The notes: a model not told the origin generated them from the letters alone. A DNA stretch of 32,000 nucleotides from Flavobacteriaceae bacterium (GCA_965224465.1 OZ245049.1:540001-572000), one strand, 5' to 3'. Positions 3,469 to 27,958 are shown, counted from the first letter of the stretch. A program made the numbers and translations.

Positions 3469-3500
3469 ATAGCCCTTTTAATGAAACTCGATATAAGGAG

Positions 3501-4922
3501 TTGTTGAAAGGGCTAGAAATAGTTGAAATAAATTATTCGGATTTAAAAGAAGAATATAGTAAATTAAGACTTGATGCTGAATTTTACAAAAAAGAGTATG
3601 TTCAATTTACCAAAACAATAAAAAAGAAAGATTTTTTAAAAATTGGACAAGTTTCATTTGTTACAGACGGAATTCACGAATCTATTGATTTTGATAAAAC
3701 AAGCGAGATTAACTTAATTTCTGCAAAATCACCTAAAGAGAATTATTTTGATTTAACATCAAATCATCATATTTCATCAAAGCAAAATCAAAAAAATCCA
3801 AGAACAGAATTACAAGAAAATGATGTAATTATTTCTACTGTTGGTACTATTGGAAATTGTGCTGTTGTGAGAAAAAATATTTTACCGGCAAATTCGGATA
3901 GACACGTTGGGATAGTTAGAATAAAGGAAAAGATAAAACCATATTTTTTATCTACTTTTTTATTGTCAAAATATGGAAGATTTCAAACATTAAGAGAATC
4001 TACAGGTAATGTTCAATTAAATTTATTTATTTACAAAATAAAGGAATTAATAATACCTAATTTATCAAATAAATTTCAATCAAAAATAGATTTTCTTTGT
4101 TCTTTAGCTTATGATAATCGAATACAATCAAAAAATAATTACACCCAAGCCGAAAACTTACTTTTAGACGAAATTGGTTTACAAAATTTTGAACCAAGCA
4201 AAGAACCTGTAAATATTAAATCTTTTAAAGATAGTTTTGGTACAAGTGGTAGATTGGATGCGGAGTATTATCAAAAGAAATATGAACAAGTAGTCAACAA
4301 AGTTAAAAATAAGCCTTTTGACATACTTTCTAATCTTGTAGATATTAAAAAATCTATAGAACCTGGTTCTAAAAACTATGTAGAAAAAGGTTTGCCTTTT
4401 ATGCGAGTTGCCGATTTATCAAAAAATGGTTTATCTGAACCTCAAAAATATATTTCTGATTATTTTGTAAAAGAAAATCAAGATAAAATCAATAATTTAA
4501 AACCTAAAAAAGGAACAATATTATTCTCAAAAGACGGAAGTGTAGGTATTGCATATCATTTAAGAGAAAATTATAAAGGCATAACATCAGGTGCGATTTT
4601 GCATTTAAATGTAAAAGATGAAAACAGAATAGTACCAGAATATTTAACACTTGCTTTAAACTCAAAAGTTGTACAAATGCAAGCAGAAAGAGATGCAGGA
4701 GGTTCAATTATATTACATTGGCGTTCAAGTGAAATAGAAAATGTTGTTGTTCCAATTATTGATTATAAAAAACAACAACAAATAGCAGATTTAATTGAAC
4801 AAAGTTTCACCCTAAAAAAACAAAGCGAACATTTATTAGAAGTTGCCAAACGAGCAGTAGAAATAGCCATAGAAGAAAATGAAGCAATAGCATTCAAGTA
4901 TATTAACCAAGAAACTAAATAA
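3501..4922 (+). CDS. hsdS: restriction-modification specificity subunit (HsdS-like, two target-recognition domains)
   Basis: 473 aa. Internal two-fold architecture with repeated conserved helices (LRLDAEFYKKEY near the N-terminus, GRLDAEYYQKKYE mid-protein). TTG start as given by the ORF track, so the start is uncertain. Confidence 0.85.
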   Translation: MLKGLEIVEINYSDLKEEYSKLRLDAEFYKKEYVQFTKTIKKKDFLKIGQVSFVTDGIHESIDFDKTSEINLISAKSPKENYFDLTSNHHISSKQNQKNPRTELQENDVIISTVGTIGNCAVVRKNILPANSDRHVGIVRIKEKIKPYFLSTFLLSKYGRFQTLRESTGNVQLNLFIYKIKELIIPNLSNKFQSKIDFLCSLAYDNRIQSKNNYTQAENLLLDEIGLQNFEPSKEPVNIKSFKDSFGTSGRLDAEYYQKKYEQVVNKVKNKPFDILSNLVDIKKSIEPGSKNYVEKGLPFMRVADLSKNGLSEPQKYISDYFVKENQDKINNLKPKKGTILFSKDGSVGIAYHLRENYKGITSGAILHLNVKDENRIVPEYLTLALNSKVVQMQAERDAGGSIILHWRSSEIENVVVPIIDYKKQQQIADLIEQSFTLKKQSEHLLEVAKRAVEIAIEENEAIAFKYINQETK

Positions 4923-4924
4923 TT

Positions 4925-5926
4925 ATGCAAGAAAACAATTCACAAATAATTATTTATCAGAATGAAAACGGAGAAACAAAATTAGATGTTCGTTTTCAAG
5001 ATGAAACCGTTTGGTTAACACAAAAATTAATGGCAGAGTTGTTTCAAACTACACCTCAAAACATAACCATACATCTAAAAAATATCTTTGAAGAAGGAGA
5101 GTTAGAAGAGAAAGCAACTTGTAAGGATTTCTTACAAGTTCAAATAGAAGGTAAAAGAGAAGTAAAACGAGAGCGTCAATTTTACAATTTAGACGCTATT
5201 ATTTCGGTAGGTTATCGTATAAAATCTAACGTAGCTACTAAGTTTAGACAATGGGCTACAAGCCAACTTAGAGAATACATAGTAAAAGGTTTTGTATTGG
5301 ATGATGAGCGTTTAAAAAACCCTGATTTACCTTTCGATTACTTTGAAGAATTAACCCAACGAATACAAGATATTCGTACTTCTGAAAAGCGTTTTTACAG
5401 AAAAATAACAGACATTTATGCAACAAGTGTAGATTATGACCCAACTTTAGACATTAGTATTGGTTTCTTTAAAACTGTCCAAAACAAATTGCATTGGGCT
5501 ATTACAGGAAACACAGCGTCTGAAATTATTACAGAAAGAGCAGATAGCACTAAAGAAAATATGGGCTTAACCAATTGGAGAGGTGTAAATATTAGAAAAT
5601 CAGATGTTTCTGTTGCGAAAAACTACTTAAAAGAAGATGAAATTTCAGCCTTAAATAATTTAGTGGAGCAATATTTAATTTTTGCACAAGGGCAAGCAAT
5701 GCGTAGAATCCCTATGCATATGAATAGTTGGATAGATAAGTTAAACAGTTTTTTAACATTAAATGACAGAGAAATTTTAACAAACGCAGGTAGTGTATCT
5801 CACGAAATTGGAAAAGAAAATTCAGAACGAGAATATAAGATTTTCAAAGAAAATAAGCAGAATATAATAGACGAAGGAGACTTTGAAAAGGCTATAAAAA
5901 AAATAGATAATAAGTCTCGAAAATAG
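4925..5926 (+). CDS. rhuM: RhuM family protein (frequently embedded in type I R-M loci)
   Basis: 333 aa. Starts 3 nt after the hsdS stop. N-terminal region (QFYNLDAIISVGYRIKSNVATKFRQWAT, LDDERLKNP) matches my recollection of RhuM-family proteins. Confidence 0.7.
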   Translation: MQENNSQIIIYQNENGETKLDVRFQDETVWLTQKLMAELFQTTPQNITIHLKNIFEEGELEEKATCKDFLQVQIEGKREVKRERQFYNLDAIISVGYRIKSNVATKFRQWATSQLREYIVKGFVLDDERLKNPDLPFDYFEELTQRIQDIRTSEKRFYRKITDIYATSVDYDPTLDISIGFFKTVQNKLHWAITGNTASEIITERADSTKENMGLTNWRGVNIRKSDVSVAKNYLKEDEISALNNLVEQYLIFAQGQAMRRIPMHMNSWIDKLNSFLTLNDREILTNAGSVSHEIGKENSEREYKIFKENKQNIIDEGDFEKAIKKIDNKSRK

Positions 5927-7070
5927 CCAACGCAAGTTCAAGCACATTTAAAGTTTGCTCGTGCCTCACAAATTTAAAAGAGCTTTCACGCCAACGCTAT
6001 CAACAGAACGGGAAAAAGCCAGCAGGTAATCGAGTAGACGGGTGACAACTGAATAGTTGCCACTGCGCCTCTCACACCACCGTACGTACGGGTCTCGTAT
6101 ACGGCGGTTCAAAAAATTGAAGTCTGCGTATTATTAATGTAATCTATCAAAGGTTTATACCCTTTTCGTACAAGTCTAGATTTGGTAATGGTAGTCTTTA
6201 AAATTGGACTTTGGGCTACTGCCCATCCTCCCATTCTGGTTCTACTCCAAGCGTATGCTTGTCCATTCTCTATTCCTAATCTGATTAGGTTTTTACGTTT
6301 TCGTTCGAGTTTTTTCCAATCGTGCCAAATACAATATCGCAACCGATTTCTTATCCACTCATCTAGCTTTTTAACTTTTGCATAGATGTTGGTTAAACGG
6401 TAATTATTCATCCAGCCTCGGCAGACTTGATTAAGCCGTTCTAAACGTTCCGACAATGACATTGGTTTGGTTTTCTTGGTAATACTCTTTAGGTTACGCT
6501 TAAACTTTGCCCAACTTTTCTTTGCTACTACTAGTATATATTGTCCTTTTACTCCCTTTTTGTAGACTGGCACAAAGCCATGTCCTAGTAACTCAAAGTT
6601 TACGGGTCTACGAATGCCACTTTTGGCTTTATTTATAGGTAGTTTTAATTTGTCTTTTAAGAAGACAAACAACGTATTCCCTATTTGTTTCGCCTCACGT
6701 TTGGTCTTTGCGTAAATGCTAAAATCATCTGCGTAGCGGACGTACCGTAAACCCATTCTTTTCATTTCTTTATCCAAGACGTCTAACATTATGTTAGATA
6801 GTAAGGGACTAATTGGGCTTCCTTGCGGGATTCCTTTTCTACGCTTTTGAAGTTTCCCATTTATTAAAATAGGAACTCTAAGCCATTTTCGGATTAAACG
6901 CATGGTTGTTGGACATTTTACCCTGTGGTAAATAAGTTGTAGTAGGATACAATGGTCCACTTCATCAAAGAACCCTTTAAGGTCAATATCTACAATATCT
7001 TGGTAACCATTATTGATATACTGTTGAGCTTGTAGTACTGCTTTTTGAATGTTCTTTTGTGGTCTAAACC

Positions 7071-7119
7071 GACCAACGGGAGCTCATGAACTCCCTAAAA
7101 TAAAAAGCTGTGAATAACC
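7071..7119 (-). repeat. 49-nt mini-insertion (TTATTCAC...GTTCATGAGCTCC family) inside intron copy A
   Basis: Absent from copies C and D at the same position (tctaaacc|caaaac). Identical to the insertion in copy B. Contains hairpin GGGAG-N8-CUCCC. Boundary ambiguous by up to 4 nt because AACC is repeated at both junctions. Confidence 0.85.
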
Positions 7120-7348
7120 CAAAACTAAGTGGCTCAAAATCAAATTCGAACTGAACCATTAATTGTTGGCTTACCGCTTGCTGTAGCCATCTATCTACTA
7201 CTGTTGGGATTCCTAAAAGTCTGGTTTTACCCTTGCCTTTTGGAATGCTTACTCCTAAGATTGAGTTTGGAACATAGCTATTCTTACGGATCGTTGTTAG
7301 TATGTCTGAACGGTTTTCAACTATATAAGTTGAAAGTTCCGTTACTTT

Positions 7349-7436
7349 TATGTGACGGTTTTATTTATTTAAATCGGTCACATAGAGCATCCGAAGATAA
7401 ATAGTCTTTCTTAGGAATATTTCTTCTCGGATGGTT
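7349..7436. repeat. 88-nt insertion made of two hairpins, unique to intron copy A
   Basis: Copies B, C and D read gttacttt|cataccatc without it. Hairpin 1 is TATGTGAC...GTCACATA. Hairpin 2 is CATCCGAAG...CTTC(TC)GGATG. Confidence 0.8.
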
Positions 7437-8021
7437 CATACCATCAACTCCGCTAGCTCCTTTATTTCGCTTCACTTGACGTGCTGCTTTAAAAAGGTTG
7501 GTAGCTTCTAGTACTTTGTCAATCATAGGTTAAATAATTCGGGTACTCCTGTTGGTTTAAAACTAGGCTAGCTAGGCATCCTAATTGAATTTCAACGTAA
7601 TTTAATGTTCTGTCCTTCCCTATTTGTGAGACCATCTGAGGTCTTTCCTCAACTCGTTTCCCATAGGTACTATGACGTCTGCTGACTTCTCCATAGAACC
7701 AACTCCTGGCTTTGGAGACCTCCCCAGGTAATGACATCTTCTTTCACTCAATCACTGCCGTATCTACATAACTACCCTTTTAGTATTCTTTTGGGCGTTG
7801 CAATGATGTGTTTACTTACCCAAGTAATTATACCTCTGTATACGGTTTCTGTTCGTCAGTACCGAGCTTTGTAGTCTCGCTTCCTTCAGATAAAACCTCA
7901 CGGTTTTCACCCTTGCGACTTACTAATGTTTCAGAACGTTACTCCTGCACATAAGGGACTTGCACCCTCTAGATTAATTAACTACCTTTCCGTAGTTAAA
8001 AGATGCCCATGCTGGGCACAC

Positions 8022-8212
8022 ACAAAGTATATAAAACATAGCTTTTAAGTGCTAAACCCAAAGGTTTGTGATTATTTACAAAGTTCCGCCAAATTTTTAA
8101 TTTGGCTTTTAAAATAGAAAAGATAAAAACAAAATATAAAAATTTGGCTCTGTACTAAACCCGAAATTTATCGTATTTTTATACGCTACGTTTCATATAC
8201 AAACCGTTGGCA
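8022..8212 (+). repeat. attC-1, distal part (its inverse core GCAGGTA is at 6022-6028, split off by intron A)
   Basis: Member of a family that is about 85% similar (8022-8212, 12019-12206, 15486-15676, 19340-19527). Arms GTATATAAAACATAGC / GCTACGTTTCATATAC. Ends in core GTTGGCA (8206-8212). Confidence 0.7.
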
Positions 8213-8227
8213 ACAAGCTAAAAAAAC

Positions 8228-9118
8228 CTACGTAATTGAAAATTCATCTGTGAAGTTTGAAATAAAATCTTGGATATACTTTTTAGATTTATCAGCAGAA
8301 CGAATAACTAAAAAATGATTTCTCTTTAATCCGTTTTTTCCGATTTTTTTATAAATCAATTCCTTTGGAAGTTTAAAAGATTTTAGTGCCCATTTTGGCA
8401 TACACATTACCCCAAAATTTGCACCAATCATTTCTAAAACAACTTCTGTAAGCGGAATAGCGGAAATTTTAGAAGGAATTATCTTATTAGGTTTTAGAAA
8501 ATGTTCATAGACAGAAACAGTTTCTAGTGGAAAAGAATGTATTATTAAATGTGCTTCTGCAAAATCATTTACATCTAAAAATTCTAAATCACCCAAAGTA
8601 TTTTCTTTATGCATAATTGCATAAATTTCATCTTCAAAAATTTCTATACTTGATAATAGACTATTTTCAGGTTTTGAGGTTACAATAGCAATGTCAATAT
8701 CATTAGACAATAACTTTGAAATTGGTTGATGTGTTGCTTCCAAAATTAGTTCTAGGTTAATTTCGGGATACAATAAGCCCATTTTTTGGATAAAATTTGG
8801 TAAACCTTGATAAAACGAATAGCACTCTGTACTTACTTTTATATTACCAATAGAACCTTTTCTTATTCTCTTAATGGTATCAAACCCTTTTTCTAAACTA
8901 TTCAATATTTCACAACCAAGTTTATTGAGCTCTTTTCCTTCTTCAGTTAAAACCCATTTGTTTCTAGTTCTATGAAAAACCTTAAACCCAAGTTGCTCTT
9001 CTAAATCTTTTAATTGATGACTTAAAGCTGATTGCGTTAGAAATAATTTACCTGATGAATTAGCAATACTACCTTCTTCAGCAATCGTTTTTATGAGTCT
9101 AAAATATTTAATTTCCAT
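8228..9118 (-). CDS. LysR family transcriptional regulator
   Basis: N-terminal HTH (MEIKYFRLIKTIAEEGSIANSSGKLFLTQSALSHQLKDLEEQLGFKVFHR) plus a substrate-binding domain. The start is more likely the MEIKYF Met (9118) than the ORF-track start at 9145. Confidence 0.85.
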   Translation of the reverse strand: MEIKYFRLIKTIAEEGSIANSSGKLFLTQSALSHQLKDLEEQLGFKVFHRTRNKWVLTEEGKELNKLGCEILNSLEKGFDTIKRIRKGSIGNIKVSTECYSFYQGLPNFIQKMGLLYPEINLELILEATHQPISKLLSNDIDIAIVTSKPENSLLSSIEIFEDEIYAIMHKENTLGDLEFLDVNDFAEAHLIIHSFPLETVSVYEHFLKPNKIIPSKISAIPLTEVVLEMIGANFGVMCMPKWALKSFKLPKELIYKKIGKNGLKRNHFLVIRSADKSKKYIQDFISNFTDEFSIT

Positions 9119-9252
9119 AACTTCAAAGTTACAACAATATGACAAATTTGAATTTGAAATATTTTCATTTATAAATTAGAATCATTCAGTTTCAAAACTA
9201 TTCCTAAATTATCAATACCTATAAATTTGTATCAAATTAAAATCTAAAAATT

Positions 9253-9645
9253 ATGCAAAAACAAATTGAATTTTACGAAAACAAATTAGCTTACGAAATG
9301 GACCCTTCAGATTTATATGATGGTTTTGAAAACAGTACAGATTATATTGCACTTGATGCACGACAAGCATTTGGGTTTGATAATGAACATATTCCAACTG
9401 CAATTAATATTCCTCATAGAGAAATGACAGAAGAAACTACAAAGCATCTTGATAAATCAAAAACGTATGTTACCTATTGTGATGGAATTGGTTGCAACGC
9501 TTCAACAAAAGGTGCGTTAAAAATGACTATATTAGGCTTTAAAGTAAAAGAACTGATGGGCGGAATTGAATGGTGGAAATTTGACGGTTATGCAACCGAA
9601 GGAACAAATTCTACCAAAGGCTCTATGTTTGAATGTGCTTGTTAA
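9253..9645 (+). CDS. rhodanese-like domain protein
   Basis: 130 aa. Rhodanese pattern with an active-site Cys loop (VTYCDGIGCNAST). Divergent from the LysR gene. Confidence 0.75.
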   Translation: MQKQIEFYENKLAYEMDPSDLYDGFENSTDYIALDARQAFGFDNEHIPTAINIPHREMTEETTKHLDKSKTYVTYCDGIGCNASTKGALKMTILGFKVKELMGGIEWWKFDGYATEGTNSTKGSMFECAC

Positions 9646-9656
9646 ATTGATAATTT

Positions 9657-10097
9657 ATGACAATAAGAATTGCAGAGAAAAGAGATTTTGAAACTATTAA
9701 AAAATTAGTTAAAGCACACGCCACATTTGAAAAGGCGAGTGCTTTAAATGATAATAACCTAAACCGATTAAGCAATTATATTTTCAATACTGATGTTGTA
9801 AAATGTTTAGTTGTAGAACTGAATAGTGAAATTGTTGGTTACGCAACCTTTATGAAACAGTTTTCTACTTGGGATGCAAATTATTATATCTACTTAGATT
9901 GTTTGTATCTAAATGAAAAAACTAGAGGAAAAGGTATAGGAACACAAATTATGAATAAAATAAAGACATACGCAAAATCTATAAGCTGTTCTGTAATTCA
10001 GTGGCAAACACCTGACTTTAATAAAAAAGCAATTGATTTTTATAAAAAACTAGGAACCGATTCTAAAACAAAAGAAAGATTCAATTGGAAAATCTAA
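9657..10097 (+). CDS. GNAT family N-acetyltransferase
   Basis: 146 aa. Acetyl-CoA binding motif region (RGKGIGTQIMNKIKTYAK). Confidence 0.8.
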   Translation: MTIRIAEKRDFETIKKLVKAHATFEKASALNDNNLNRLSNYIFNTDVVKCLVVELNSEIVGYATFMKQFSTWDANYYIYLDCLYLNEKTRGKGIGTQIMNKIKTYAKSISCSVIQWQTPDFNKKAIDFYKKLGTDSKTKERFNWKI

Positions 10098-10193
10098 AAA
10101 AAGCCAGTTGCCAATCGAGTAGACGGGTGACAACTGAATAGTTGCCACTGCGCCTCTCACACCACCGTACGTACGGGTCTCGTATACGGCGGT

Positions 10194-11523
10194 TCAAAAA
10201 ATTGAAGTCTGCGTATTATTAATGTAATCTATCAAAGGTTTATACCCTTTTCGTACAAGTCTAGATTTGGTAATGGTAGTCTTTAAAATTGGACTTTGGG
10301 CTACTGCCCATCCTCCCATTCTGGTTCTACTCCAAGCGTATGCTTGTCCATTCTCTATTCCTAATCTGATTAGGTTTTTACGTTTTCGTTCGAGTTTTTT
10401 CCAATCGTGCCAAATACAATATCGCAACCGATTTCTTATCCACTCATCTAGCTTTTTAACTTTTGCATAGATGTTGGTTAAACGGTAATTATTCATCCAG
10501 CCTCGGCAGACTTGATTAAGCCGTTCTAAACGTTCCGACAATGACATTGGTTTGGTTTTCTTGGTAATACTCTTTAGGTTACGCTTAAACTTTGCCCAAC
10601 TTTTCTTTGCTACTACTAGTATATATTGTCCTTTTACTCCCTTTTTGTAGACTGGCACAAAGCCATGTCCTAGTAACTCAAAGTTTACGGGTCTACGAAT
10701 GCCACTTTTGGCTTTATTTATAGGTAGTTTTAATTTGTCTTTTAAGAAGACAAACAACGTATTCCCTATTTGTTTCGCCTCACGTTTGGTCTTTGCGTAA
10801 ATGCTAAAATCATCTGCGTAGCGGACGTACCGTAAACCCATTCTTTTCATTTCTTTATCCAAGACGTCTAACATTATGTTAGATAGTAAGGGACTAATTG
10901 GGCTTCCTTGCGGGATTCCTTTTCTACGCTTTTGAAGTTTCCCATTTATTAAAATAGGAACTCTAAGCCATTTTCGGATTAAACGCATGGTTGTTGGACA
11001 TTTTACCCTGTGGTAAATAAGTTGTAGTAGGATACAATGGTCCACTTCATCAAAGAACCCTTTAAGGTCAATATCTACAATATCTTGGTAACCATTATTG
11101 ATATACTGTTGAGCTTGTAGTACTGCTTTTTGAATGTTCTTTTGTGGTCTAAACCGACCAACGGGAGCTCATGAACTCCCTAAAATAAAAAGCTGTGAAT
11201 AACCCAAAACTAAGTGGCTCAAAATCAAATTCGAACTGAACCATTAATTGTTGGCTTACCGCTTGCTGTAGCCATCTATCTACTACTGTTGGGATTCCTA
11301 AAAGTCTGGTTTTACCCTTGCCTTTTGGAATGCTTACTCCTAAGATTGAGTTTGGAACATAGCTATTCTTACGGATCGTTGTTAGTATGTCTGAACGGTT
11401 TTCAACTATATAAGTTGAAAGTTCCGTTACTTTCATACCATCAACTCCGCTAGCTCCTTTATTTCGCTTCACTTGACGTGCTGCTTTAAAAAGGTTGGTA
11501 GCTTCTAGTACTTTGTCAATCAT
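10194..11523 (-). pseudogene. intron RT/maturase, frameshifted by the 49-nt insertion
   Basis: ORF pieces 10194-11045 and 11149-11523 together match the 426-aa copy D protein. Confidence 0.9.
11156..11204 (-). repeat. 49-nt mini-insertion, identical in sequence and position to the one in copy A
   Basis: gaccaacgggagctcatgaactccctaaaataaaaagctgtgaataacc on the + strand. Its reverse complement belongs to the TTATTCAC...GTTCATGAG family seen at 24831-25286. Confidence 0.85.
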
Positions 11524-12018
11524 AGGTTAAATAATTCGGGTACTCCTGTTGGTTTAAAACTAGGCTAGCTAGGCATCCTAATTGAATTTCAACGTAATTT
11601 AATGTTCTGTCCTTCCCTATTTGTGAGACCATCTGAGGTCTTTCCTCAACTCGTTTCCCATAGGTACTATGACGTCTGCTGACTTCTCCATAGAACCAAC
11701 TCCTGGCTTTGGAGACCTCCCCAGGTAATGACATCTTCTTTCACTCAATCACTGCCGTATCTACATAACTACCCTTTTAGTATTCTTTTGGGCGTTGCAA
11801 TGATGTGTTTACTTACCCAAGTAATTATACCTCTGTATACGGTTTCTGTTCGTCAGTACCGAGCTTTGTAGTCTCGCTTCCTTCAGATAAAACCTCACGG
11901 TTTTCACCCTTGCGACTTACTAATGTTTCAGAACGTTACTCCTGCACATAAGGGACTTGCACCCTCTAGATTAATTAACTACCTTTCCGTAGTTAAAAGA
12001 TGCCCATGCTGGGCACAC

Positions 12019-12206
12019 ACAAGGTGTATAAAACATAGCTTTTAAGTGTTAAACCCAAAGGTTTGCACTTATCTACAAAGTTCCGCCAAATTTTTAATTT
12101 GGCTTTTAAAATGAAAAGATAAAAACAAAATAAAAAATTCGGCTCTGTGTTTAACCGAAAAACAGTACCTTTTTACACGCTACGTTTCATACACAAACCG
12201 TTATGC
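12019..12206 (+). repeat. attC-2, distal part (inverse core at 10107-10113)
   Basis: Same repeat family. Ends in core GTTATGC (12200-12206). Confidence 0.7.
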
Positions 12207-12232
12207 CTTATTAAAAAAACACAAGCTTCATA

Positions 12233-12811
12233 ATGAACGAAAAGAATCTTCTTAGAAATATATTTTCAAGTGCAAACCTTTCAATTAAAGAAAATGAAAG
12301 CGTATTAAAATCATTTACACAAGTAATTTTCAAAAAGAATGAATTTCTGTTTAAGGAAGGTCAAACACTCAATCATTATTACTTTTTAGAAAAAGGTTTT
12401 GTACGATCTTTTATTTATGATTATGATGGAAATGAAATAACTACAAGATTTTACTCTGAACCTGAAATTGTATTAGATTGGACTTCTTTTATGCTACGAA
12501 CTCCGACTCAGGAAAACTTCCAAGCAAACACGGACTGTATATGCTGGCGTTTGAAATTTAATGATTTCCAAGAACTTTTTAATTCAATAAAAGGTTTTAG
12601 AGAATCAGGAAGAAGTCGATTTGCAAATAGTTATTTAGAATTAAAAAATAGTCACCTCTCAATAATTTCAACTACTGCAAAAGAAAGATACTTGAAACTT
12701 ATAAAAGAACATCCTGAAATAATAAATAATGCTTCTTTAAAACATATTGCTACTTATCTTGGCATTACCGACACCTCATTAAGCAGAATTAGAAAAGAAA
12801 TTGTATCCTGA
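12233..12811 (+). CDS. Crp/Fnr family transcriptional regulator
   Basis: 192 aa. cNMP-binding-like N-terminal domain (FKKNEFLFKEGQTLNHYYFLEKGFVR) and C-terminal HTH (LKHIATYLGITDTSLSRIRK). Confidence 0.8.
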   Translation: MNEKNLLRNIFSSANLSIKENESVLKSFTQVIFKKNEFLFKEGQTLNHYYFLEKGFVRSFIYDYDGNEITTRFYSEPEIVLDWTSFMLRTPTQENFQANTDCICWRLKFNDFQELFNSIKGFRESGRSRFANSYLELKNSHLSIISTTAKERYLKLIKEHPEIINNASLKHIATYLGITDTSLSRIRKEIVS

Positions 12812-12888
12812 TATTTCTTTCTTGCCAAATGCTAAGTCTTTTAAATTTAATAGCATATACCTTTGTTTAAAACAAAAAACAATAATTT

Positions 12889-13629
12889 ATGTACATTTCA
12901 ACCATTTCAACAGCAATAATCGTATTATTCATTGTTTCATTGGCATTTCCTCTTTTTATGTACGCTTTTGCTATAAAATCAGCAGGAAAATCAGCAGGAA
13001 TAATCTCGTCAAAAATTCGTAATATTCAATTTGGTGTTTTTGGGTTTTTCATATTATGGTGGGTGTTTACTTCGTTTTTATCTATTAATGGATTTCTTTA
13101 TGGAAATGTTCTACCTCCAAAACCTGTTCTCTTTTTAGTACTCCCACTTATACTTTTTTTATTCTTTGTTATAAAAAGGAGTTCTACATTTAAAAAGTTA
13201 TTTGAATCTATAAAAATTGAAACGCTAATCAATATTCATATTTACAGGTTAATTGGTGGCTGGTTTTTAATAATGGCATATTACGAACTTTTACCCTTCG
13301 GGTTTGCCACAAGAGCTGGATGGGGAGATATTCTCTCAGGGATATTTGCTTTATTGATAACTTATTTGGTTTTCAAGAAAAAAATATTAGGTATTAAATG
13401 GGCATACGTTTGGAATATTTTTGGGTTAATTGATATTCTTGCTGTTGTAATATCAGCAACAATATTAACCTCGAGTGCTCATTCTAACCCAACAAACGCA
13501 AATGATATTATGGAATTAACTAGGTTTCCTTTTGCTTTAATACCAGCTTTTGCCCCAGCTTCTTTAATCTTTTTGCACATCATAACGTTTCAAAAATTGA
13601 ATCTAATAAGAAAAGAAAACAAGGCATAA
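12889..13629 (+). CDS. integral membrane protein, function unknown
   Basis: 246 aa with several long hydrophobic segments. The stop TAA overlaps inverse core AAGGCATA and the first intron base. Confidence 0.6.
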   Translation: MYISTISTAIIVLFIVSLAFPLFMYAFAIKSAGKSAGIISSKIRNIQFGVFGFFILWWVFTSFLSINGFLYGNVLPPKPVLFLVLPLILFLFFVIKRSSTFKKLFESIKIETLINIHIYRLIGGWFLIMAYYELLPFGFATRAGWGDILSGIFALLITYLVFKKKILGIKWAYVWNIFGLIDILAVVISATILTSSAHSNPTNANDIMELTRFPFALIPAFAPASLIFLHIITFQKLNLIRKENKA

Positions 13630-15485
13630 TCGAGTAGACGGGTGACAACTGAATAGTTGCCACTGCGCCTCTCACACCACCGTACGTACGGGTCTCGTAT
13701 ACGGCGGTTCAAAAAATTGAAGTCTGCGTATTATTAATGTAATCTATCAAAGGTTTATACCCTTTTCGTACAAGTCTAGATTTGGTAATGGTAGTCTTTA
13801 AAATTGGACTTTGGGCTACTGCCCATCCTCCCATTCTGGTTCTACTCCAAGCGTATGCTTGTCCATTCTCTATTCCTAATCTGATTAGGTTTTTACGTTT
13901 TCGTTCGAGTTTTTTTCCAATCGTGCCAAATACAATATCGCAACCGATTTCTTATCCACTCATCTAGCTTTTTAACTTTTGCATAGATGTTGGTTAAACG
14001 GTAATTATTCATCCAGCCTCGGCAGACTTGATTAAGCCGTTCTAAACGTTCCGACAATGACATTGGTTTGGTTTTCTTGGTAATACTCTTTAGGTTACGC
14101 TTAAACTTTGCCCAACTTTTCTTTGCTACTACTAGTATATATTGTCCTTTTACTCCCTTTTTGTAGACTGGCACAAAGCCATGTCCTAGTAACTCAAAGT
14201 TTACGGGTCTACGAATGCCACTTTTGGCTTTATTTATAGGTAGTTTTAATTTGTCTTTTAAGAAGACAAACAACGTATTCCCTATTTGTTTCGCCTCACG
14301 TTTGGTCTTTGCGTAAATGCTAAAATCATCTGCGTAGCGGACGTACCGTAAACCCATTCTTTTCATTTCTTTATCCAAGACGTCTAACATTATGTTAGAT
14401 AGTAAGGGACTAATTGGGCTTCCTTGCGGGATTCCTTTTCTACGCTTTTGAAGTTTCCCATTTATTAAAATAGGAACTCTAAGCCATTTTCGGATTAAAC
14501 GCATGGTTGTTGGACATTTTACCCTGTGGTAAATAAGTTGTAGTAGGATACAATGGTCCACTTCATCAAAGAACCCTTTAAGGTCAATATCTACAATATC
14601 TTGGTAACCATTATTGATATACTGTTGAGCTTGTAGTACTGCTTTTTGAATGTTCTTTTGTGGTCTAAACCCAAAACTAAGTGGCTCAAAATCAAATTCG
14701 AACTGAACCATTAATTGTTGGCTTACCGCTTGCTGTAGCCATCTATCTACTACTGTTGGGATTCCTAAAAGTCTGGTTTTACCCTTGCCTTTTGGAATGC
14801 TTACTCCTAAGATTGAGTTTGGAACATAGCTATTCTTACGGATCGTTGTTAGTATGTCTGAACGGTTTTCAACTATATAAGTTGAAAGTTCCGTTACTTT
14901 CATACCATCAACTCCGCTAGCTCCTTTATTTCGCTTCACTTGACGTGCTGCTTTAAAAAGGTTGGTAGCTTCTAGTACTTTGTCAATCATAGGTTAAATA
15001 ATTCGGGTACTCCTGTTGGTTTAAAACTAGGCTAGCTAGGCATCCTAATTGAATTTCAACGTAATTTAATGTTCTGTCCTTCCCTATTTGTGAGACCATC
15101 TGAGGTCTTTCCTCAACTCGTTTCCCATAGGTACTATGACGTCTGCTGACTTCTCCATAAAACCAACTCCTGGCTTTGGAGACCTCCCCAGGTAATGACA
15201 TCTTCTTTCACTCAATCACTGCCGTATCTACATAACTACCCTTTTAGTATTCTTTTGGGCGTTGCAATGATGTGTTTACTTACCCAAGTAATTATACCTC
15301 TGTATACGGTTTCTGTTCGTCAGTACCGAGCTTTGTAGTCTCGCTTCCTTCAGATAAAACCTCACGGTTTTCACCCTTGCGACTTACTAATGTTTCAGAA
15401 CGTTACTCCTGCACATAAGGGACTTGCACCCTCTAGATTAATTAACTACCTTTCCGTAGTTAAAAGATGCCCATGCTGGGCACAC
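13629..15485 (-). mobile_element. group II intron copy C (class C-like, in attC), RT frameshifted
   Basis: 1857 nt versus 1856 nt in copy D. The extra T lies in the T-run at 13911-13917. One substitution near 15160. Confidence 0.9.
13709..14990 (-). pseudogene. intron RT/maturase with a +1 frameshift near the 3' end (or a sequencing error)
   Basis: The 365-aa ORF (13893-14990) is identical to copy D until the homopolymer, then diverges (..WKKTRTKT). The natural stop would be at 13709. Confidence 0.8.
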
Positions 15486-15676
15486 ACAATGTATAAAAAA
15501 CATAGGGATTTTGGTGCTAAACCAAAGTTCTGTGAATATTTACAAAGTCCGCTAAATATAAAATTTAGCGTTTATATAAGAAAAAATAAAAGCAAAATAT
15601 TTATACTTAGCTAAGTAATAAACCGATTCGAAAGTGCTTTTTAACTGCCCTACGTTTCTTATACTAGACGTTAGCC
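15486..15676 (+). repeat. attC-3, distal part (inverse core at 13621-13628)
   Basis: More diverged member of the family. Its internal hairpin keeps pairing through compensatory changes (CGCTAAAT...ATTTAGCG). Ends in core GTTAGCC (15670-15676). Confidence 0.7.
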
Positions 15677-15711
15677 ATAATTATAAACAAACTTTCAGAA
15701 TTCAAAAATGA

Positions 15712-16539
15712 ATGCAGATTGAAACGTTCAAACCACAAAACAAAGAACTTAAGAAATATATTGAAAGTTTTTACATTTTGGAACATTCCCGAAAGGATGA
15801 TAAAATAAGTTATTTAACCTTTCCTTCTATTTTCTCAATTGTAGCGGTAGTTAATAACGCAAAAAATATTATAACGGCTGATAATATCACAACAAAATTT
15901 TCTAAATCAGAATCATTAGAAACAAGTTTAGTCTGTAAATTCAACACACCTATTTGTTTTCAATATCAAGGCAACATTAAGGAAATTTGTATTTATTTTA
16001 AACCTTTAGGGCTAAATGCTTTTATAAAAAATAATTTAGCAAGTTTTAGTCATAGTTACTTTGACCCGTTTATACCATTTTCTGATTACGAGAATGAAAT
16101 GAAAAAAATTTTAGACACTGAAAATAAAACTCGGTTAGTAGAAAGTTTGGAAAAATATTGGTTGAGTAAAATTATTGGGTTTCACCATCCTTTTTTAAGT
16201 AATGCTATTTCTAAAATAGAAGAGAATCCGAAAATAACGACTCTGGAATTAGCAAATGAATTTAATGTCAGCCAAAAGACATTAATTTCGCATTTTAAAA
16301 AACACTTATGCAAAACACCTTCTGAATACAAAAAAATACTACGATTCAGAAAAGCTTTATCCGAAATGCAAAATTCAAACAAAGAAACTAAATTAACTGA
16401 ATTGACTTATATTATTGATTTCTTTGACCAATCACATATGGTTGCCAACTTTAAATCATTAACTGGACTCTCACCAAAAACATTTTTTAAAAACTTGACA
16501 ACTATAAAAAATAGTAGTATTCATTGGATATTTGGATAG
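15712..16539 (+). CDS. AraC family transcriptional regulator
   Basis: 275 aa. C-terminal double HTH (LELANEFNVSQKTLISHFKKHLCKTPSEYKKILRF...FFDQSHMVANFKSLTGLSPKTFF). Confidence 0.85.
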   Translation: MQIETFKPQNKELKKYIESFYILEHSRKDDKISYLTFPSIFSIVAVVNNAKNIITADNITTKFSKSESLETSLVCKFNTPICFQYQGNIKEICIYFKPLGLNAFIKNNLASFSHSYFDPFIPFSDYENEMKKILDTENKTRLVESLEKYWLSKIIGFHHPFLSNAISKIEENPKITTLELANEFNVSQKTLISHFKKHLCKTPSEYKKILRFRKALSEMQNSNKETKLTELTYIIDFFDQSHMVANFKSLTGLSPKTFFKNLTTIKNSSIHWIFG

Positions 16540-16607
16540 GGTAAATCTTTTACAATTTAATTGGTATTTCAACAACTAAATTTGCAGTTCATCAAAATCA
16601 ATTTACT

Positions 16608-17474
16608 ATGAAAAACATCATTTTTGTATTCTTACTTGTCTTTGTGCTTTTAGGTTGTAAAAAAGAGCAAGACAAAGTCCAAACAAAATCTATTGAAAAT
16701 TTAAGCAGTAAAGAAGCATTACTTGTTGGAACATTTCATTATAATAATCCAGGTGCTGATGTCGCCAAATTCAAATCATTTAATATTCTTAACGAAGATT
16801 CTCAACTTGAATTGGATAAAATAAGTGCAAAAATCAAGAATTATAATCCAACTAAAATATTTGTAGAATGGCCATATAACGAACAAAAAGAATTAGATTC
16901 TTTGTATCAGTTATATAATCAAGGTAAGTATTTCCAAAACGATAGTCTTTCTGACTTTTATTTGAAAAATGAAATATTTCAATTAGCATTTAGAGTAGCG
17001 AAAGAAATTAAGCTAAAAACCATCTATGCCATTGACTACAATGAAACAAAATTTCCATTTAATGACGTTATGAATGATATTGAAAAAAGGAATCAGTCTG
17101 AACTTAAAAAAAACATAGAAAACGACATATCTAAACTTACAACAGAATTTGATAATAAAATTGAATCAGAAACTTCACTTATAGAATTAACATACTATAT
17201 GAATACTTCTGAATTCCGAGACTTTCATAATAACCTTCATAATAACTTAATGCTATTAGCAGGCGAACCAGATGATTTTTCTGGACCATTTTTGACATCT
17301 GAATGGTTTAAGAGAAATCTATATATGTGGTCATTCGTTCAAAAAAACACGAAAAAGTCTGATGAAAGAATTATGGTTTTGGCTGGAGCAGGTCACATAG
17401 CTATGTTTGAGAAATTTATTAACCAGAATAGTGAATGGAAAGTTAAAGAACTAAAAGAAGTTATGGAAAAGTAA
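16608..17474 (+). CDS. lipoprotein, function unknown (possibly TraB/GumN/Tiki-like superfamily)
   Basis: 288 aa. Signal peptide with lipobox (VLLGC). LVGTFHYNNPG and GAGH motifs recall DUF5694/TraB-GumN type proteins. This is recollection only. Confidence 0.55.
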   Translation: MKNIIFVFLLVFVLLGCKKEQDKVQTKSIENLSSKEALLVGTFHYNNPGADVAKFKSFNILNEDSQLELDKISAKIKNYNPTKIFVEWPYNEQKELDSLYQLYNQGKYFQNDSLSDFYLKNEIFQLAFRVAKEIKLKTIYAIDYNETKFPFNDVMNDIEKRNQSELKKNIENDISKLTTEFDNKIESETSLIELTYYMNTSEFRDFHNNLHNNLMLLAGEPDDFSGPFLTSEWFKRNLYMWSFVQKNTKKSDERIMVLAGAGHIAMFEKFINQNSEWKVKELKEVMEK

Positions 17475-17483
17475 CTATGGCTA

Positions 17484-19339
17484 ATCGAGTAGACGGGTGA
17501 CAACTGAATAGTTGCCACTGCGCCTCTCACACCACCGTACGTACGGGTCTCGTATACGGCGGTTCAAAAAATTGAAGTCTGCGTATTATTAATGTAATCT
17601 ATCAAAGGTTTATACCCTTTTCGTACAAGTCTAGATTTGGTAATGGTAGTCTTTAAAATTGGACTTTGGGCTACTGCCCATCCTCCCATTCTGGTTCTAC
17701 TCCAAGCGTATGCTTGTCCATTCTCTATTCCTAATCTGATTAGGTTTTTACGTTTTCGTTCGAGTTTTTTCCAATCGTGCCAAATACAATATCGCAACCG
17801 ATTTCTTATCCACTCATCTAGCTTTTTAACTTTTGCATAGATGTTGGTTAAACGGTAATTATTCATCCAGCCTCGGCAGACTTGATTAAGCCGTTCTAAA
17901 CGTTCCGACAATGACATTGGTTTGGTTTTCTTGGTAATACTCTTTAGGTTACGCTTAAACTTTGCCCAACTTTTCTTTGCTACTACTAGTATATATTGTC
18001 CTTTTACTCCCTTTTTGTAGACTGGCACAAAGCCATGTCCTAGTAACTCAAAGTTTACGGGTCTACGAATGCCACTTTTGGCTTTATTTATAGGTAGTTT
18101 TAATTTGTCTTTTAAGAAGACAAACAACGTATTCCCTATTTGTTTCGCCTCACGTTTGGTCTTTGCGTAAATGCTAAAATCATCTGCGTAGCGGACGTAC
18201 CGTAAACCCATTCTTTTCATTTCTTTATCCAAGACGTCTAACATTATGTTAGATAGTAAGGGACTAATTGGGCTTCCTTGCGGGATTCCTTTTCTACGCT
18301 TTTGAAGTTTCCCATTTATTAAAATAGGAACTCTAAGCCATTTTCGGATTAAACGCATGGTTGTTGGACATTTTACCCTGTGGTAAATAAGTTGTAGTAG
18401 GATACAATGGTCCACTTCATCAAAGAACCCTTTAAGGTCAATATCTACAATATCTTGGTAACCATTATTGATATACTGTTGAGCTTGTAGTACTGCTTTT
18501 TGAATGTTCTTTTGTGGTCTAAACCCAAAACTAAGTGGCTCAAAATCAAATTCGAACTGAACCATTAATTGTTGGCTTACCGCTTGCTGTAGCCATCTAT
18601 CTACTACTGTTGGGATTCCTAAAAGTCTGGTTTTACCCTTGCCTTTTGGAATGCTTACTCCTAAGATTGAGTTTGGAACATAGCTATTCTTACGGATCGT
18701 TGTTAGTATGTCTGAACGGTTTTCAACTATATAAGTTGAAAGTTCCGTTACTTTCATACCATCAACTCCGCTAGCTCCTTTATTTCGCTTCACTTGACGT
18801 GCTGCTTTAAAAAGGTTGGTAGCTTCTAGTACTTTGTCAATCATAGGTTAAATAATTCGGGTACTCCTGTTGGTTTAAAACTAGGCTAGCTAGGCATCCT
18901 AATTGAATTTCAACGTAATTTAATGTTCTGTCCTTCCCTATTTGTGAGACCATCTGAGGTCTTTCCTCAACTCGTTTCCCATAGGTACTATGACGTCTGC
19001 TGACTTCTCCATAGAACCAACTCCTGGCTTTGGAGACCTCCCCAGGTAATGACATCTTCTTTCACTCAATCACTGCCGTATCTACATAACTACCCTTTTA
19101 GTATTCTTTTGGGCGTTGCAATGATGTGTTTACTTACCCAAGTAATTATACCTCTGTATACGGTTTCTGTTCGTCAGTACCGAGCTTTGTAGTCTCGCTT
19201 CCTTCAGATAAAACCTCACGGTTTTCACCCTTGCGACTTACTAATGTTTCAGAACGTTACTCCTGCACATAAGGGACTTGCACCCTCTAGATTAATTAAC
19301 TACCTTTCCGTAGTTAAAAGATGCCCATGCTGGGCACAC
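17484..19339 (-). mobile_element. group II intron copy D, apparently intact (class C-like, attC-targeting)
   Basis: 1856 nt. 5' GUGUGCCCAGC, 3' ...CUACUCGAU. Domain V at 17531-17565 (rc GAACCGCCGUAUACGAGACCCGUACGUACGGUGGU), then a DVI hairpin with a bulged A 7 nt from the end. Full-length RT ORF in domain IV. Confidence 0.92.
17564..18844 (-). CDS. group II intron reverse transcriptase/maturase (no endonuclease domain)
   Basis: 426 aa. RT motifs (GIPQGSPISPLLSNI, YVRYADDFSIY with YADD). Maturase X-domain (CRGWMNNYR). The protein ends without an HNH/En extension. Confidence 0.92.
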   Translation of the reverse strand: MIDKVLEATNLFKAARQVKRNKGASGVDGMKVTELSTYIVENRSDILTTIRKNSYVPNSILGVSIPKGKGKTRLLGIPTVVDRWLQQAVSQQLMVQFEFDFEPLSFGFRPQKNIQKAVLQAQQYINNGYQDIVDIDLKGFFDEVDHCILLQLIYHRVKCPTTMRLIRKWLRVPILINGKLQKRRKGIPQGSPISPLLSNIMLDVLDKEMKRMGLRYVRYADDFSIYAKTKREAKQIGNTLFVFLKDKLKLPINKAKSGIRRPVNFELLGHGFVPVYKKGVKGQYILVVAKKSWAKFKRNLKSITKKTKPMSLSERLERLNQVCRGWMNNYRLTNIYAKVKKLDEWIRNRLRYCIWHDWKKLERKRKNLIRLGIENGQAYAWSRTRMGGWAVAQSPILKTTITKSRLVRKGYKPLIDYINNTQTSIF

Positions 19340-19527
19340 ACAACGTGTATAAAACATAGCTAATAAGTGCTAGACCGAAAGGTTTGTGCTTATTTACGAA
19401 AACCGCCAAATTTTTAATTTGGCTTTAAAACTGAAAAGTTAAAACAAAATATAAAAAATTGGCTCTGTGTTTATCCGAAAAGTTAGCGTCTTTTAACACG
19501 CTACGTTTCATACACAAACCGTTGTAA
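19340..19527 (+). repeat. attC-4, distal part (inverse core at 17476-17483)
   Basis: Same family. Arms GTGTATAAAACATAGC / GCTACGTTTCATACAC. Ends in core GTTGTAA (19521-19527). Confidence 0.7.
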
Positions 19528-19541: not shown

Positions 19542-20567
19542 ATGATAAATAAAATTCTGATTCCGTTACTACTTATCACATTAGTTGCAAGTTGTCAAAA
19601 TAAAAAAAATATGAATAAAGAATACGAATGGAGAGTATCCATCAATGCACCAAAAAAATTTCCCGCTACTATATACTACGCATCCTTAGGAGGTGTAGAA
19701 ATGAGAAGAGATGGAACTATAGATAGCGGTTGGGGTATCTCTGGTTCTGATAGTGAAGGAATGAAAACACTGCCAAAAACACTAAATTTAATATGGCTTT
19801 CTTATGTAGAAAATCAATTTTATAAAGGAAACTTTAAACTAGACCAAGAAAAAATAAAACAAGTTTTTGATGAAGGCTTTTTAAAGAGTTTACGAACTGG
19901 TATTACAAGGTTTCATGATTTTCATTTTGTCATTAATGTAGCACCAGGAGGTACGGTGGCTGTATGGATGAAAGGTTTGGGTGGCTTTCAACGAGAAGTA
20001 GGCTTTTTTAAAGCCGAAAAAACAGACGTAAAATGGAAAGACTTTGTACCGATGGGACTTCAAGACAGAGAGAAATATGTACAAGGAAGATTAGATAGAA
20101 ATGGCGAAAAAAAATCCTTAATCCATTACAAAACCAACGGCATCCCTTTTGAACGTTGGAAAAACTACCGAGAATATTTTAGTTTAAAAACTAGTATGCC
20201 TCTAAAACATGAATTAGTTTTTTTGAGATACGATTGTTTTAATGGAGAACGTTTTTATGGAGAAAATAAGGCCTACCATAGAAACGAAAACTTTAGTAAA
20301 TTACCGATTCCTAAAGAGATTGCAATTAATTGGATAGAAGAAGGCAATGATGAATACAAATACATTGCCGTTTTAAATCTAAAAGAAAGTGAATATACTA
20401 AAATGGCTACCTTTTTAAAAAAACACGGTAATAAAGCAGCATTTTATATAGAACCCTATATTCCAATAAACGTAAGAGAAGTACGTTTATTTTTAAAAAA
20501 TGATACTGAGAAAATGGAGGTTGAGTTACAACCTTATGAGGTGAAACGAAAATATTTAAAATTTTAA
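19542..20567 (+). CDS. lipoprotein, candidate immunity partner of the downstream lipase (possibly DUF2931-like)
   Basis: 341 aa. Lipobox (LVASC). Its stop lies 2 nt before the ATG of the Tle1-like gene. The DUF assignment is recollection only. Confidence 0.5.
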   Translation: MINKILIPLLLITLVASCQNKKNMNKEYEWRVSINAPKKFPATIYYASLGGVEMRRDGTIDSGWGISGSDSEGMKTLPKTLNLIWLSYVENQFYKGNFKLDQEKIKQVFDEGFLKSLRTGITRFHDFHFVINVAPGGTVAVWMKGLGGFQREVGFFKAEKTDVKWKDFVPMGLQDREKYVQGRLDRNGEKKSLIHYKTNGIPFERWKNYREYFSLKTSMPLKHELVFLRYDCFNGERFYGENKAYHRNENFSKLPIPKEIAINWIEEGNDEYKYIAVLNLKESEYTKMATFLKKHGNKAAFYIEPYIPINVREVRLFLKNDTEKMEVELQPYEVKRKYLKF

Positions 20568-20569
20568 TT

Positions 20570-21244
20570 ATGGGAATTGTTTTTGGAGAATATGTACCTA
20601 GTAGAGAAAAAACAGAATACGGAAAAATAGTAACCGTAGGTGTATTTTTTGACGGCACATTGAACAACCGTAAAAACACCCGTGCTCGTAAAACAACCTT
20701 AGGTGAAGAAACAGATAATAACCCCACTTTAAGCACCACAATAAATGCAGATGGTACTAGCGAAAGAGCACAGGGAATTACAGCTTTTAATAAAGAAAAA
20801 GATGTAAGTTATTTTAATGATGAATCTAATGTGTCTCGTTTAGAACGCTTTTATAAAAAGGATGATACCGAGGTATTAAAAATATATGTGGAAGGTATTG
20901 GTACAGATAATTTTAAAGGCGATGCATTTTTAAGTAAAACCATGGGAGCTTTTAGTAGAGGTATTGGCGATAAAGTGAGTAAAGCTTGCAAGACAATTGC
21001 AGAAAAATTAGATGATTTAAAATATGATGGAGATAGGCTTATAAATGTATTACAAATAGATGTTTATGGCTTTAGTAGTGGTGCAGCGGCGGCACGCCAC
21101 TTTATCTACCAAATAATGCGTACAGATACCTTTACATTAGAAACCGATATTATTACAGGGTTTACAATAGATATTCATCCAACAAAGGGCTATTTAGGGC
21201 AGTATTTACACAATAAAATTAGTGTAGATGAAATTAAAAGCTGA
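20570..21244 (+). pseudogene. DUF2235/Tle1-like alpha/beta-hydrolase (T6SS phospholipase effector family), 3'-truncated by IS30
   Basis: GVFFDGTLNNRKNT near the N-terminus and nucleophile elbow YGFSSGAAAARHF. The last two codons and the TGA stop (21239-21244) come from the IS30 end. Confidence 0.7.
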
Positions 21245-24929: not shown

Positions 24930-25035
24930 TACAGTTCACTCAATCACTGCCGCATCTACATAAATACCCTTTTGATATTCTTTGGATCTTACAATGATGT
25001 GTTTGCTTACCCAAGTAATTACGCCTCTGTATACG

Positions 25036-27947: not shown

Positions 27948-27958
27948 TACTGTAGTTA

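Follow-up and report, generated by a model that had tools for sequence, protein, structure and literature searches.

Class C introns of group II (IIC introns) that invade the attC sites at which integron cassettes recombine, known as IIC-attC introns, are portrayed as infrequent passengers of the integrons of Proteobacteria, and the small number of known cases is a question raised in the literature. They are exemplified by S.ma.I2 of Serratia marcescens and by the introns of class 1, Shewanella, Geobacter and Nitrosomonas integrons. Their published target is the R'' box of the attC site, with the consensus TTGT/T (intron-binding sites IBS1/IBS3), on the bottom strand and in the orientation opposite to cassette transcription (PMC7923331; PMC3001079). 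We analyzed a 32,000-nt stretch of DNA from a Flavobacteriaceae bacterium (hereafter the window; all positions are counted from its first letter) that contains an array of gene cassettes in which most of the attC-type sites are interrupted by copies of one intron. Our main conclusion, to which we attach a probability of about 0.85, is that a class C intron entered the attC-type sites in the chromosomal cassette array of a marine flavobacterium by repeated retrohoming into their folded bottom strand.

The window intron shares with the proteobacterial IIC-attC introns the bottom-strand R'' target TTGT/T and the antisense orientation, the Rfam ribozyme families (RF02001 at 134 bits in the classical introns and 126 bits in the window intron), an exon-binding site 1 (EBS1) in the same loop and a reverse transcriptase (RT) without endonuclease domain; more than one intron copy per array is also found in a Shewanella array (L012). 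It differs from them in its 5′ end (GUGUG instead of GUACG), in its RT, which is only 35–37% identical to theirs, in its Bacteroidota host and in a much higher occupancy (6/8 recognisable sites). Ordinary class C introns (O. iheyensis, B.h.I1, GsI-IIC, Eubacterium rectale (E.r.) IIC) have the same compact ribozyme with a CGC triad and a similar RT of about 420 aa without endonuclease domain, and their recognition of a hairpin plus 3–4 nt of IBS1 is probably shared by the window intron. However, they follow terminators, usually in the sense orientation, whereas the window intron uses cassette sites in the antisense orientation. The IS1111-attC insertion sequences are another mobile family that specifically invades attC sites (PMC9229058), but these are DNA transposons with a DEDD transposase and the window intron is a ribozyme-based retroelement. 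These comparisons support the view that the behaviour is of a known kind, and that the novelty lies in a Bacteroidota-specific RT lineage, a very high occupancy and a non-canonical host platform.

The G+C content of the window is about 29–33%, except in four blocks at 38–39% that correspond to four direct repeats of the intron, all on the minus strand. Their coordinates, obtained by repeat finding and by MAFFT alignment with 80-nt flanks, match exactly those given in a preliminary description of this DNA. Copy D (17484–19339, 1856 nt) is the only one in the window with a full open reading frame (ORF) for the 426-aa RT/maturase (17564–18844); its domains V–VI lie at 17484–17564 and its EBS1 stem-loop at 19118–19133, all on the minus strand. 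Copy A (6029–8021, 1993 nt) carries a 49-nt insertion (7071–7119) and an 88-nt insertion (7349–7436), the latter found in this copy only. The 49-nt insertion is common to copies A and B (10114–12018, 1905 nt) and splits the RT ORF of copy B at 11156–11204. Copy C (13629–15485, 1857 nt) has one extra A in an A-run (13906–13923), which shifts the RT frame past residue about 360, and a C>T single-nucleotide polymorphism at 15160. Apart from these 88-nt, 49-nt and 1-nt insertions and this polymorphism, the four copies are identical over 1856 nt; the three indels had been counted in the preliminary description, to which only the substitution in copy C has to be added. Two degraded copies occupy the same insertion position, also on the minus strand, in further attC sites of the same array. 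Copy E (24608–25378, 771 nt) is decayed, diverged in sequence and without ORF. It has retained its 5′ end, domains V–VI and some of domain I, and contains at least six small insertions, one of them replacing the domain V loop (24668–24727). Copy F (27959–27972) is a 14-nt 3′ stump (..CCCGTCTACTCGAT) abutting an IS256-like element (27973 to about 29382) that removed the rest of the intron.

On the minus strand, the intron junctions read 5′-..TTGT/GTGTGCCC...CTCGAT/T-3′, with the exception of copy E (TTAT), and the similarity between copies begins at ..TTGT/GTGTGCCC and stops at ..CTACTCGAT/T. On the bottom strand the insertion point is ..TTGT^TRRRY within R'', with the introns antisense to the cassettes. 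TTGT/T is found at four of the five window copies with a surviving 5′ junction, and at 11 of 13 distinct 5′ junctions when related contigs are included, the two exceptions being TTAT (copy E) and GTGT (L001:3648). The same target rule applies in Formosa, Polaribacter and Persicobacter, and on a Chondrinema plasmid. The introns of Formosa haliotis and Polaribacter litorisediminis are preceded by ..TTGT, followed by T, and lie after an attC-like hairpin, antisense to small accessory genes. Classical integron introns obey this rule as well: in a Serratia plasmid (L006, intI1-blaIMP-26-intron-qacEdelta1) and in the Shewanella array L012, the junctions read ..ATTGT/GTACGCCC...CCCGAT/T. Insertion always at the same base, antisense and at NTTGT^TRRRY, as proposed from the first inspection of the window, is thus observed at the intron junctions, with only the TTAT of copy E deviating in sequence, and equals the published IIC-attC rule.

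On the plus strand, each intron lies between ..A and AC.., and its removal restores ..A/AC, the inverse core predicted earlier. After each intron, a conserved stretch of about 190 nt ends with ..CCGTT, and the 8–10 nt that start at the GTT of each site are the reverse complement of the bases preceding the next intron. This complementarity between R' and R'' boxes was found in six links (attC0-A, A-B, B-C, C-D, attC5-E and E-F). For instance, GTTGGCAAC after A pairs with GTTGCCA/AC at B, GTTATGCC after B with GGCATA/AC at C, and GTTAGCCATA after C with TATGGCTA/AC at D. Insertion of a circular cassette by crossover between the G and the TT of R' produces such a complementarity at cassette boundaries, and we know of no other process that does. 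The six links therefore identify the targets as attC-type sites, in which cassettes were inserted by site-specific recombination.

All these sites are on the plus strand, and each invaded site is split into an R'' half before the intron and a body with R' box after it. The body and R' of attC A extend from 8022 to 8212 (R' GTTGGCA, 8206–8212), and its R'' (GCAGGTA) lies at 6022–6028. The corresponding segments are 12019–12206 (R' GTTATGC) and 10105–10113 for attC B, 15486–15676 (R' GTTAGCC) and 13621–13628 for attC C, and 19340–19527 (R' GTTGTAA) and 17475–17483 for attC D. attC E is shorter, about 130 nt (25379–25503, R' GTTAACT at 25497–25503; R'' half 24599–24607), and its R' GTTAACTAC is complementary to CTGTAGTTA, the R'' half (27950–27958) of the site hosting intron F. 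Two sites are unoccupied: attC0 (961–1037), a short site of classical appearance and about 75 nt whose R' GTTACCTGC, from 1031, is complementary to the R'' of attC A, and attC5 (23021–23153), whose R' GTTGGCATT, from 23147, is complementary to the R'' of attC E. Both differ in sequence type from the invaded sites, and their bottom strands read GTGT/T at the would-be target instead of TTGT/T. The array spans from before 961 to about 27958, with eight recognisable sites of which six are invaded. The GTT core is present in all seven R' boxes, and the RRRY part fits loosely.

When the introns are removed, the bottom strand of each site folds as a long L''/L' stem flanked by the R box. The z-scores of the restored bottom strands of five sites range from −3.2 to −7.0 relative to shuffled sequence, and at each of the five the top strand folds less stably than the bottom one. 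The L-box stems vary by compensatory changes (GTAGC with GCTAT, GTAGGG with CCCTAT, GTTGGGC with GCCCAAT, GTGGC with GCCAT), so that the stem is preserved despite sequence drift, both between sites and between genomes. It could be argued that the intron merely follows generic hairpins, such as terminators or repetitive extragenic palindromic (REP)-like repeats, since IIC introns usually insert after terminator hairpins (PMC3001079), since the sites are unusually long (about 190 nt) and since we found no integrase or recombinase gene in the window, where the only transposases belong to IS30-like and IS256-like elements. We consider this very unlikely, because the complementarity of 8–10 nt in six links is made only by site-specific cassette insertion. 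In addition, the chain of GTT sites begins, in five related loci, 30–60 nt beyond the end of a tyrosine recombinase ORF, and closely related strains differ in their cassettes.

The conserved stretch that precedes AAC reaches beyond the 7-nt R'' box. Nearly identical words, AAAGCCAGCAGGTA/AC and AAAGCCAGTTGCCA/AC, are found before the crossover-proximal AAC in different cassettes, even in different genera (window 6014–6028 and 10099–10113; L007 4362–4375; L015 ~11708).

The ribozyme and the protein of the element were compared with group II intron models and with solved structures. Each of the four copies is matched by the domain I–IV models RF02001 (126 bits) and RF01998 (36 bits), and the last 81 nt, corresponding to domains V–VI, are matched by RF00029 at 39.9 bits with a relaxed threshold, the cut-off being 40. 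The last 117 nt fold into domains V and VI at −40 kcal/mol (z = −5.1). The intron starts with GUGUG and ends with AU. Domain V reads CCGCCGUAUACGAG-ACCCGUACGUACGGUGG, with a CGC triad instead of the AGC of most group II introns; in the RF00029 alignment, CCGCCGUAU stands where the consensus has GAGCCGUAU. Domain VI contains a bulged A seven bases from the 3′ end, and the ribozyme outside the ORF amounts to about 575 nt. In the RT, Pfam recognizes RVT_1 (residues 65–270) and GIIM (295–368) and no other domain, endonuclease included, and the protein scores 358 bits with the NCBIfam group II RT/maturase model TIGR04416. Against PDB, it aligns over its full length with the RTs of GsI-IIC (6AR1, 311 bits) and of the E.r. 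IIC intron (299 bits), then with the R.i. and E.r. RT domains (218 bits each); scores are much lower for LtrA of class IIA (114 bits) and TeI4h of class IIB (110 bits). The four best solved relatives are all class C proteins, which supports the assignment of the element to the class C group II introns. The hallmarks from which this class had first been recognized (both ends, compact ribozyme, CGC triad, 426-aa RT lacking an endonuclease, total length of about 1.86 kb) are all present.

EBS1 was placed in the terminal loop at 19118–19133 by alignment of domain I with those of the Serratia and Shewanella introns. The classical introns have GCACAAGA (ACAA) in this loop, and the window intron has ACACAUCA (ACA). 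In five Bacteroidota introns, EBS1 ACA is associated with the target TGT, whereas in two Adhaeribacter introns ACC is associated with GGT. This compensatory change at position −3 is what is expected from EBS1/IBS1 pairing, and the complementary EBS1 that the preliminary description had suggested looking for is thus both present and covarying with its target. Recognition by a hairpin, a 3-bp EBS1/IBS1 interaction and a T at +1, that is by class C logic, is supported by this covariation.

By definition, the IIC-attC lineage is a monophyletic group within the class C RTs (PMC3001079). The RT of the window intron is 35–37% identical to the RTs of Serratia and Shewanella attC introns, 40–41% identical to Firmicutes IIC RTs and 60–69% identical to RTs encoded on Cytophagia and Chryseobacterium plasmids. 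In a neighbour-joining tree (14 taxa, distance method, 500 bootstraps, unrooted bipartitions), the Bacteroidota clade and the classical IIC-attC clade were each recovered at 100%, whereas their grouping as sisters obtained 1.2%. Membership of the window intron in the monophyletic IIC-attC subset is therefore unsupported, a weak negative result given the small number of taxa, one long branch and the distance method. The class C affiliation expected for this RT is borne out by its nearest solved relatives, but a grouping with the classical IIC-attC proteins does not appear in this tree. Similarly, the likeness to S.ma.I2 noted at first sight extends to the position and orientation of the target and not to the RT, which is only 36% identical and does not group with it. 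The Bacteroidota introns may possibly represent a second lineage of attC-targeting introns.

Marine Flavobacteriaceae (Tenacibaculum, Formosa, Polaribacter, Winogradskyella, Yeosuana) commonly encode relatives of this RT at 74–96% identity, and a large number of these relatives are on contigs of 1.4–2.5 kb, about the length of the intron. An identical RT protein is encoded on three contigs of the metagenome assembly ERZ25073217 of the European Nucleotide Archive (ENA) and on one 5.24-Mb NCBI contig. The ERZ25073217 contigs carry about ten further intron copies, six of them full-length at 100% identity and another one with an insertion in domain V. The earlier statement that only one of five RT genes is intact, so that a single RT may serve the other copies, is therefore true of the window, but the same type of genome has several intact copies.

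Two structures seen in these copies deserve description. In copy E, a 60-nt insertion starting with GGTTCATGAG takes the place of the domain V terminal loop (24668–24727); a sister-strain copy that codes for the RT and is intact in other respects has this insertion as well (L005 2490–2548). Such an insertion leaves the RT gene whole but should inactivate the ribozyme. At the sister-strain site of copy C (L001 17107–19679), the 5′ end of the intron is followed by about 750 nt of E-like diverged fragments, then by a full copy that begins at intron position 36, which suggests a nested or recombinant intron.

The mechanism that we propose for the accumulation of introns in this array starts with recognition by the intron RNA of the attC hairpin and of a very short pairing sequence. 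EBS1 5′-ACA-3′ would pair with TGT, the last three bases of the 5′ exon, with the T at +1 acting as IBS3. The RNA would then reverse-splice between GT and T of the bottom-strand R'' box, which would place all copies at the same base and antisense to the cassettes. Because the RT has no endonuclease domain, cDNA synthesis would presumably be primed from the nascent strand at a replication fork. Both reverse splicing into single-stranded DNA and priming from nascent strands are established for class C introns. Copies with a broken RT gene (A, B, C and E) could have moved, or could move again, only if an intact copy, for instance D, provided the RT. Once in place, the identical direct repeats of 1.86 kb would serve as substrates for homologous recombination and rearrange the array independently of the site-specific recombinase. 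We infer the RNA-mediated pathway, the priming at forks, the supply of RT in trans and the impairment of split attC sites from the anatomy of the locus.

Alternatively, the introns could have spread at the DNA level, an intron being copied from site to site together with the attC body, by gene conversion or unequal homologous recombination between similar attC sites, after one or a few initial insertions. The attC body on the 5′-exon side is indeed 90–98% identical between copies over about 130 nt (repeat family D12), copies A and B carry the same 49-nt insertion, and recombination at introns has occurred between strains (see below). On the other hand, all copies end at precisely the same base on the 3′ side, even though no two of the R'' words that come next are alike, and conversion tracts are not expected to stop at the same base six times. 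Similarity between attC sites is normal in chromosomal arrays; here it reaches R', far from the intron, and also concerns the empty site of L015. Finally, the same intron is found in dissimilar sites (E, L001:9506 and L003). Spread by DNA copying is therefore improbable.

Comparison with a sister contig indicates what the introns do to the array. At copy D, the intron and 600 nt on its 3′-exon side are 100% identical in the two sequences, whereas the 5′-exon side falls to the similarity of the attC family at the intron boundary and is unrelated beyond. Copies B and C show the opposite arrangement, with a 5′-exon side 100% identical and a 3′-exon side diverging within 12–50 nt of the intron. 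A site-specific cassette event would break synteny between the G and the TT of R', not at R''. The breaks at introns fit exchanges within identical introns instead, and this comparison supports a rearrangement of the array by recombination between intron copies, the route predicted in the preliminary description from the direct repeats.

Identical repeats of 1.86 kb are hard to assemble, and the many relatives on contigs of 1.4–2.5 kb are typical of collapsed repeats, so one could suspect that a single repeat was placed several times in the assembly. This is extremely unlikely, since every copy is bordered by unique sequence at either end and three copies have private indels. Moreover, copies B, C and D recur at identical junctions in the independent metagenome assembly ERZ25073217, where copy B again carries its 49-nt insertion.

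Several points nevertheless weigh against repeated retrohoming as a full account of the locus. An empty attC with a perfect TTGT/T is present in a sister contig (L015 ~11715), so that occupancy is incomplete. The two empty sites of the window read GTGT/T, yet GTGT was used at L001:3648 in the sister strain; IBS1 alone thus does not explain the choice of sites. Identity among the copies could come partly from gene conversion rather than from recent insertion, and the 49-nt insertion common to A and B, which has to be explained by RT acting in trans or by DNA exchange, fits both. Misassembly across identical repeats, in either assembly, could in principle have produced the breaks of synteny. The activity of the intron, for its part, is deduced from sequence identity and intact motifs.

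The introns may also affect the mobility of the cassettes. Splitting by the intron leaves the hairpin with only two bases of R''; all the others being separated from it, the R box cannot form. A block to the excision of intron-split cassettes, as proposed from the first, would be a reasonable consequence of this arrangement.

The cassettes of the window mostly contain two or three genes, often a regulator and an effector, as in the sets LysR, rhodanese and GNAT; Crp and a membrane protein; AraC and DUF5694. Cassette 1 (1032–6028, about 5 kb, plus strand) encodes a type I restriction-modification methylase, its specificity subunit and a RhuM-family gene. One cassette (19542–21244) combines a DUF2931 gene with one that encodes a Tle1-like phospholipase, an effector of type VI secretion. 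An IS30-like element (21239–22384, minus strand) inside cassette 5 interrupts this Tle1-like gene, and a second copy, 98% identical and in inverted orientation (26222–27367), interrupts a YARHG gene inside the cassette that follows attC E. The array probably ends at the IS256-like element next to copy F. A 564-aa ORF at the right end of the window (30272–31966, minus strand) appears VgrG-like by eye.

The sister contig provides a view of the beginning of such an array, which lies beside the gene for a 378-aa tyrosine recombinase. Four other Bacteroidota loci have the same layout, one on the Chondrinema plasmid and the others in Winogradskyella forsetii, Algibacter sp. L1A34 and Aureibaculum algae. 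In the five loci, the recombinase gene (L015 9937–11073, L016 10001–11131, L132 8001–9107, L134 8001–9098 and L007 4959–6119; about 368–378 aa) is co-oriented with the cassettes and not divergent from them. An attI-like GTT site is located 30–60 nt past its stop codon in each locus, and the reverse complement of the 9–10 nt that follow this GTT closes the first cassette. Automated chaining of boundaries with 8-nt words was reliable for the first steps only in this AT-rich DNA. The recombinase keeps the catalytic R-K-H-R-H-Y residues. It has an N-terminal extension of about 90 aa and, when aligned with IntI1, lacks the IntI-specific insertion of about 36 aa. It reaches 180 bits with the integron integrase model TIGR02249, for which the cut-off is 265, and among solved structures a XerC-like protein is its best match. 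Members of the family occur widely in Flavobacteriaceae; the recombinase, like the RT, is present in ERZ25073217 and on the 5.24-Mb NCBI contig. Cassettes of these relatives carry SIR2 with DUF87 (HerA-like), a gene of the GmrSD family, a Lamassu gene resembling LmuB, and genes for an ApaLI restriction enzyme and for a type ISP enzyme.

The arrays share with sedentary chromosomal integrons (Vibrio, Xanthomonas and the 'inverted' Treponema type) their length, their related imperfect palindromes with a GTT core, the complementarity of boundaries and a strain-variable content rich in defence genes. In contrast with these integrons, the recombinase of the relatives has no IntI insertion, has a long N-terminal extension and scores below the integrase cut-off. 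Its gene also points in the direction of the cassettes, with the attI-like site located after the stop codon. The sites, too, are longer (up to about 190 nt), and most cassettes comprise two or three genes, frequently including a regulator. As the recombinase of the relatives is non-canonical, the label 'integron' needs qualification. IntegronFinder 2.0 reported almost no integrons in Bacteroidetes (PMC9024848), perhaps because recombinase and sites are atypical. Our search for literature on integrons or attC sites in these Flavobacteriaceae genera, which did not extend to most subscription journals, returned nothing.

The recombinase and its arrays may thus form an unrecognised integron-like platform. 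A broader picture can be proposed tentatively, and we would not put it at even odds: marine Flavobacteriaceae and some Cytophagia plasmids would share such a platform, with a Xer-like, co-oriented recombinase devoid of the IntI insertion, sites of up to about 190 nt and multi-gene, defence-rich cassettes; the Bacteroidota IIC lineage would have gained TTGT/T targeting independently or from a much older ancestor; and this lineage would have grown so abundant in the arrays that recombination between introns, and not the recombinase, would drive much of the rearrangement. TAnnTTTG is the consensus of the Bacteroidetes −7 promoter element. We searched for this motif as a sign of an internal outward promoter (Pout), which in the IIC-attC lineage drives downstream cassettes, and found none on the plus strand, neither within the final 300 nt of the intron nor in attC, although a motif search of this kind cannot exclude a promoter.

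Small insertions are themselves a feature of these introns. The 88-nt insertion of copy A (7349–7436) contains two hairpins (CATCCGAGAAG..CTTCGGATG and TATGTGACCG..CCGTCACATA), and no second copy of it was found in the window or in loci L001–L005. The 49-nt insertion of copies A (7071–7119) and B (11156–11204) belongs to a family whose members share the core TTATTCAC-N7-9-ATTTT-N5-10-GTTCATGA and have a short tail containing GC; copy E holds at least five more units of this family. An exact-pattern scan using one genome per species detected at least 113 such stretches (loci L017–L129), almost all in Bacteroidota and distributed over many orders; 13 of the 113, among the matches listed, lie inside or against class C RT genes. 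One unit interrupts a CRISPR repeat in Tenacibaculum (L069). The units gave no match in Rfam at E ≤ 1. We considered that the unit might be a peptide gene, but the mini-ORF on its reverse strand varies in length and stops early; a hairpin, but no consistent stem is visible by eye between the conserved ends; or the end of a larger element, but no neighbouring gene is conserved. The family looks like a phylum-wide miniature insertion element.

The window thus shows the target logic of IIC-attC introns at work in another phylum and with a distant RT lineage, at a copy number high enough to split most sites of one array. In the comparison of two strains, the breakpoints of array rearrangement coincide with introns, which makes this locus a natural system for asking how a retroelement alters the dynamics of a cassette array. 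If confirmed, the cassette arrays of marine Flavobacteriaceae would widen the known range of integron-like systems and of their reservoirs of defence genes.

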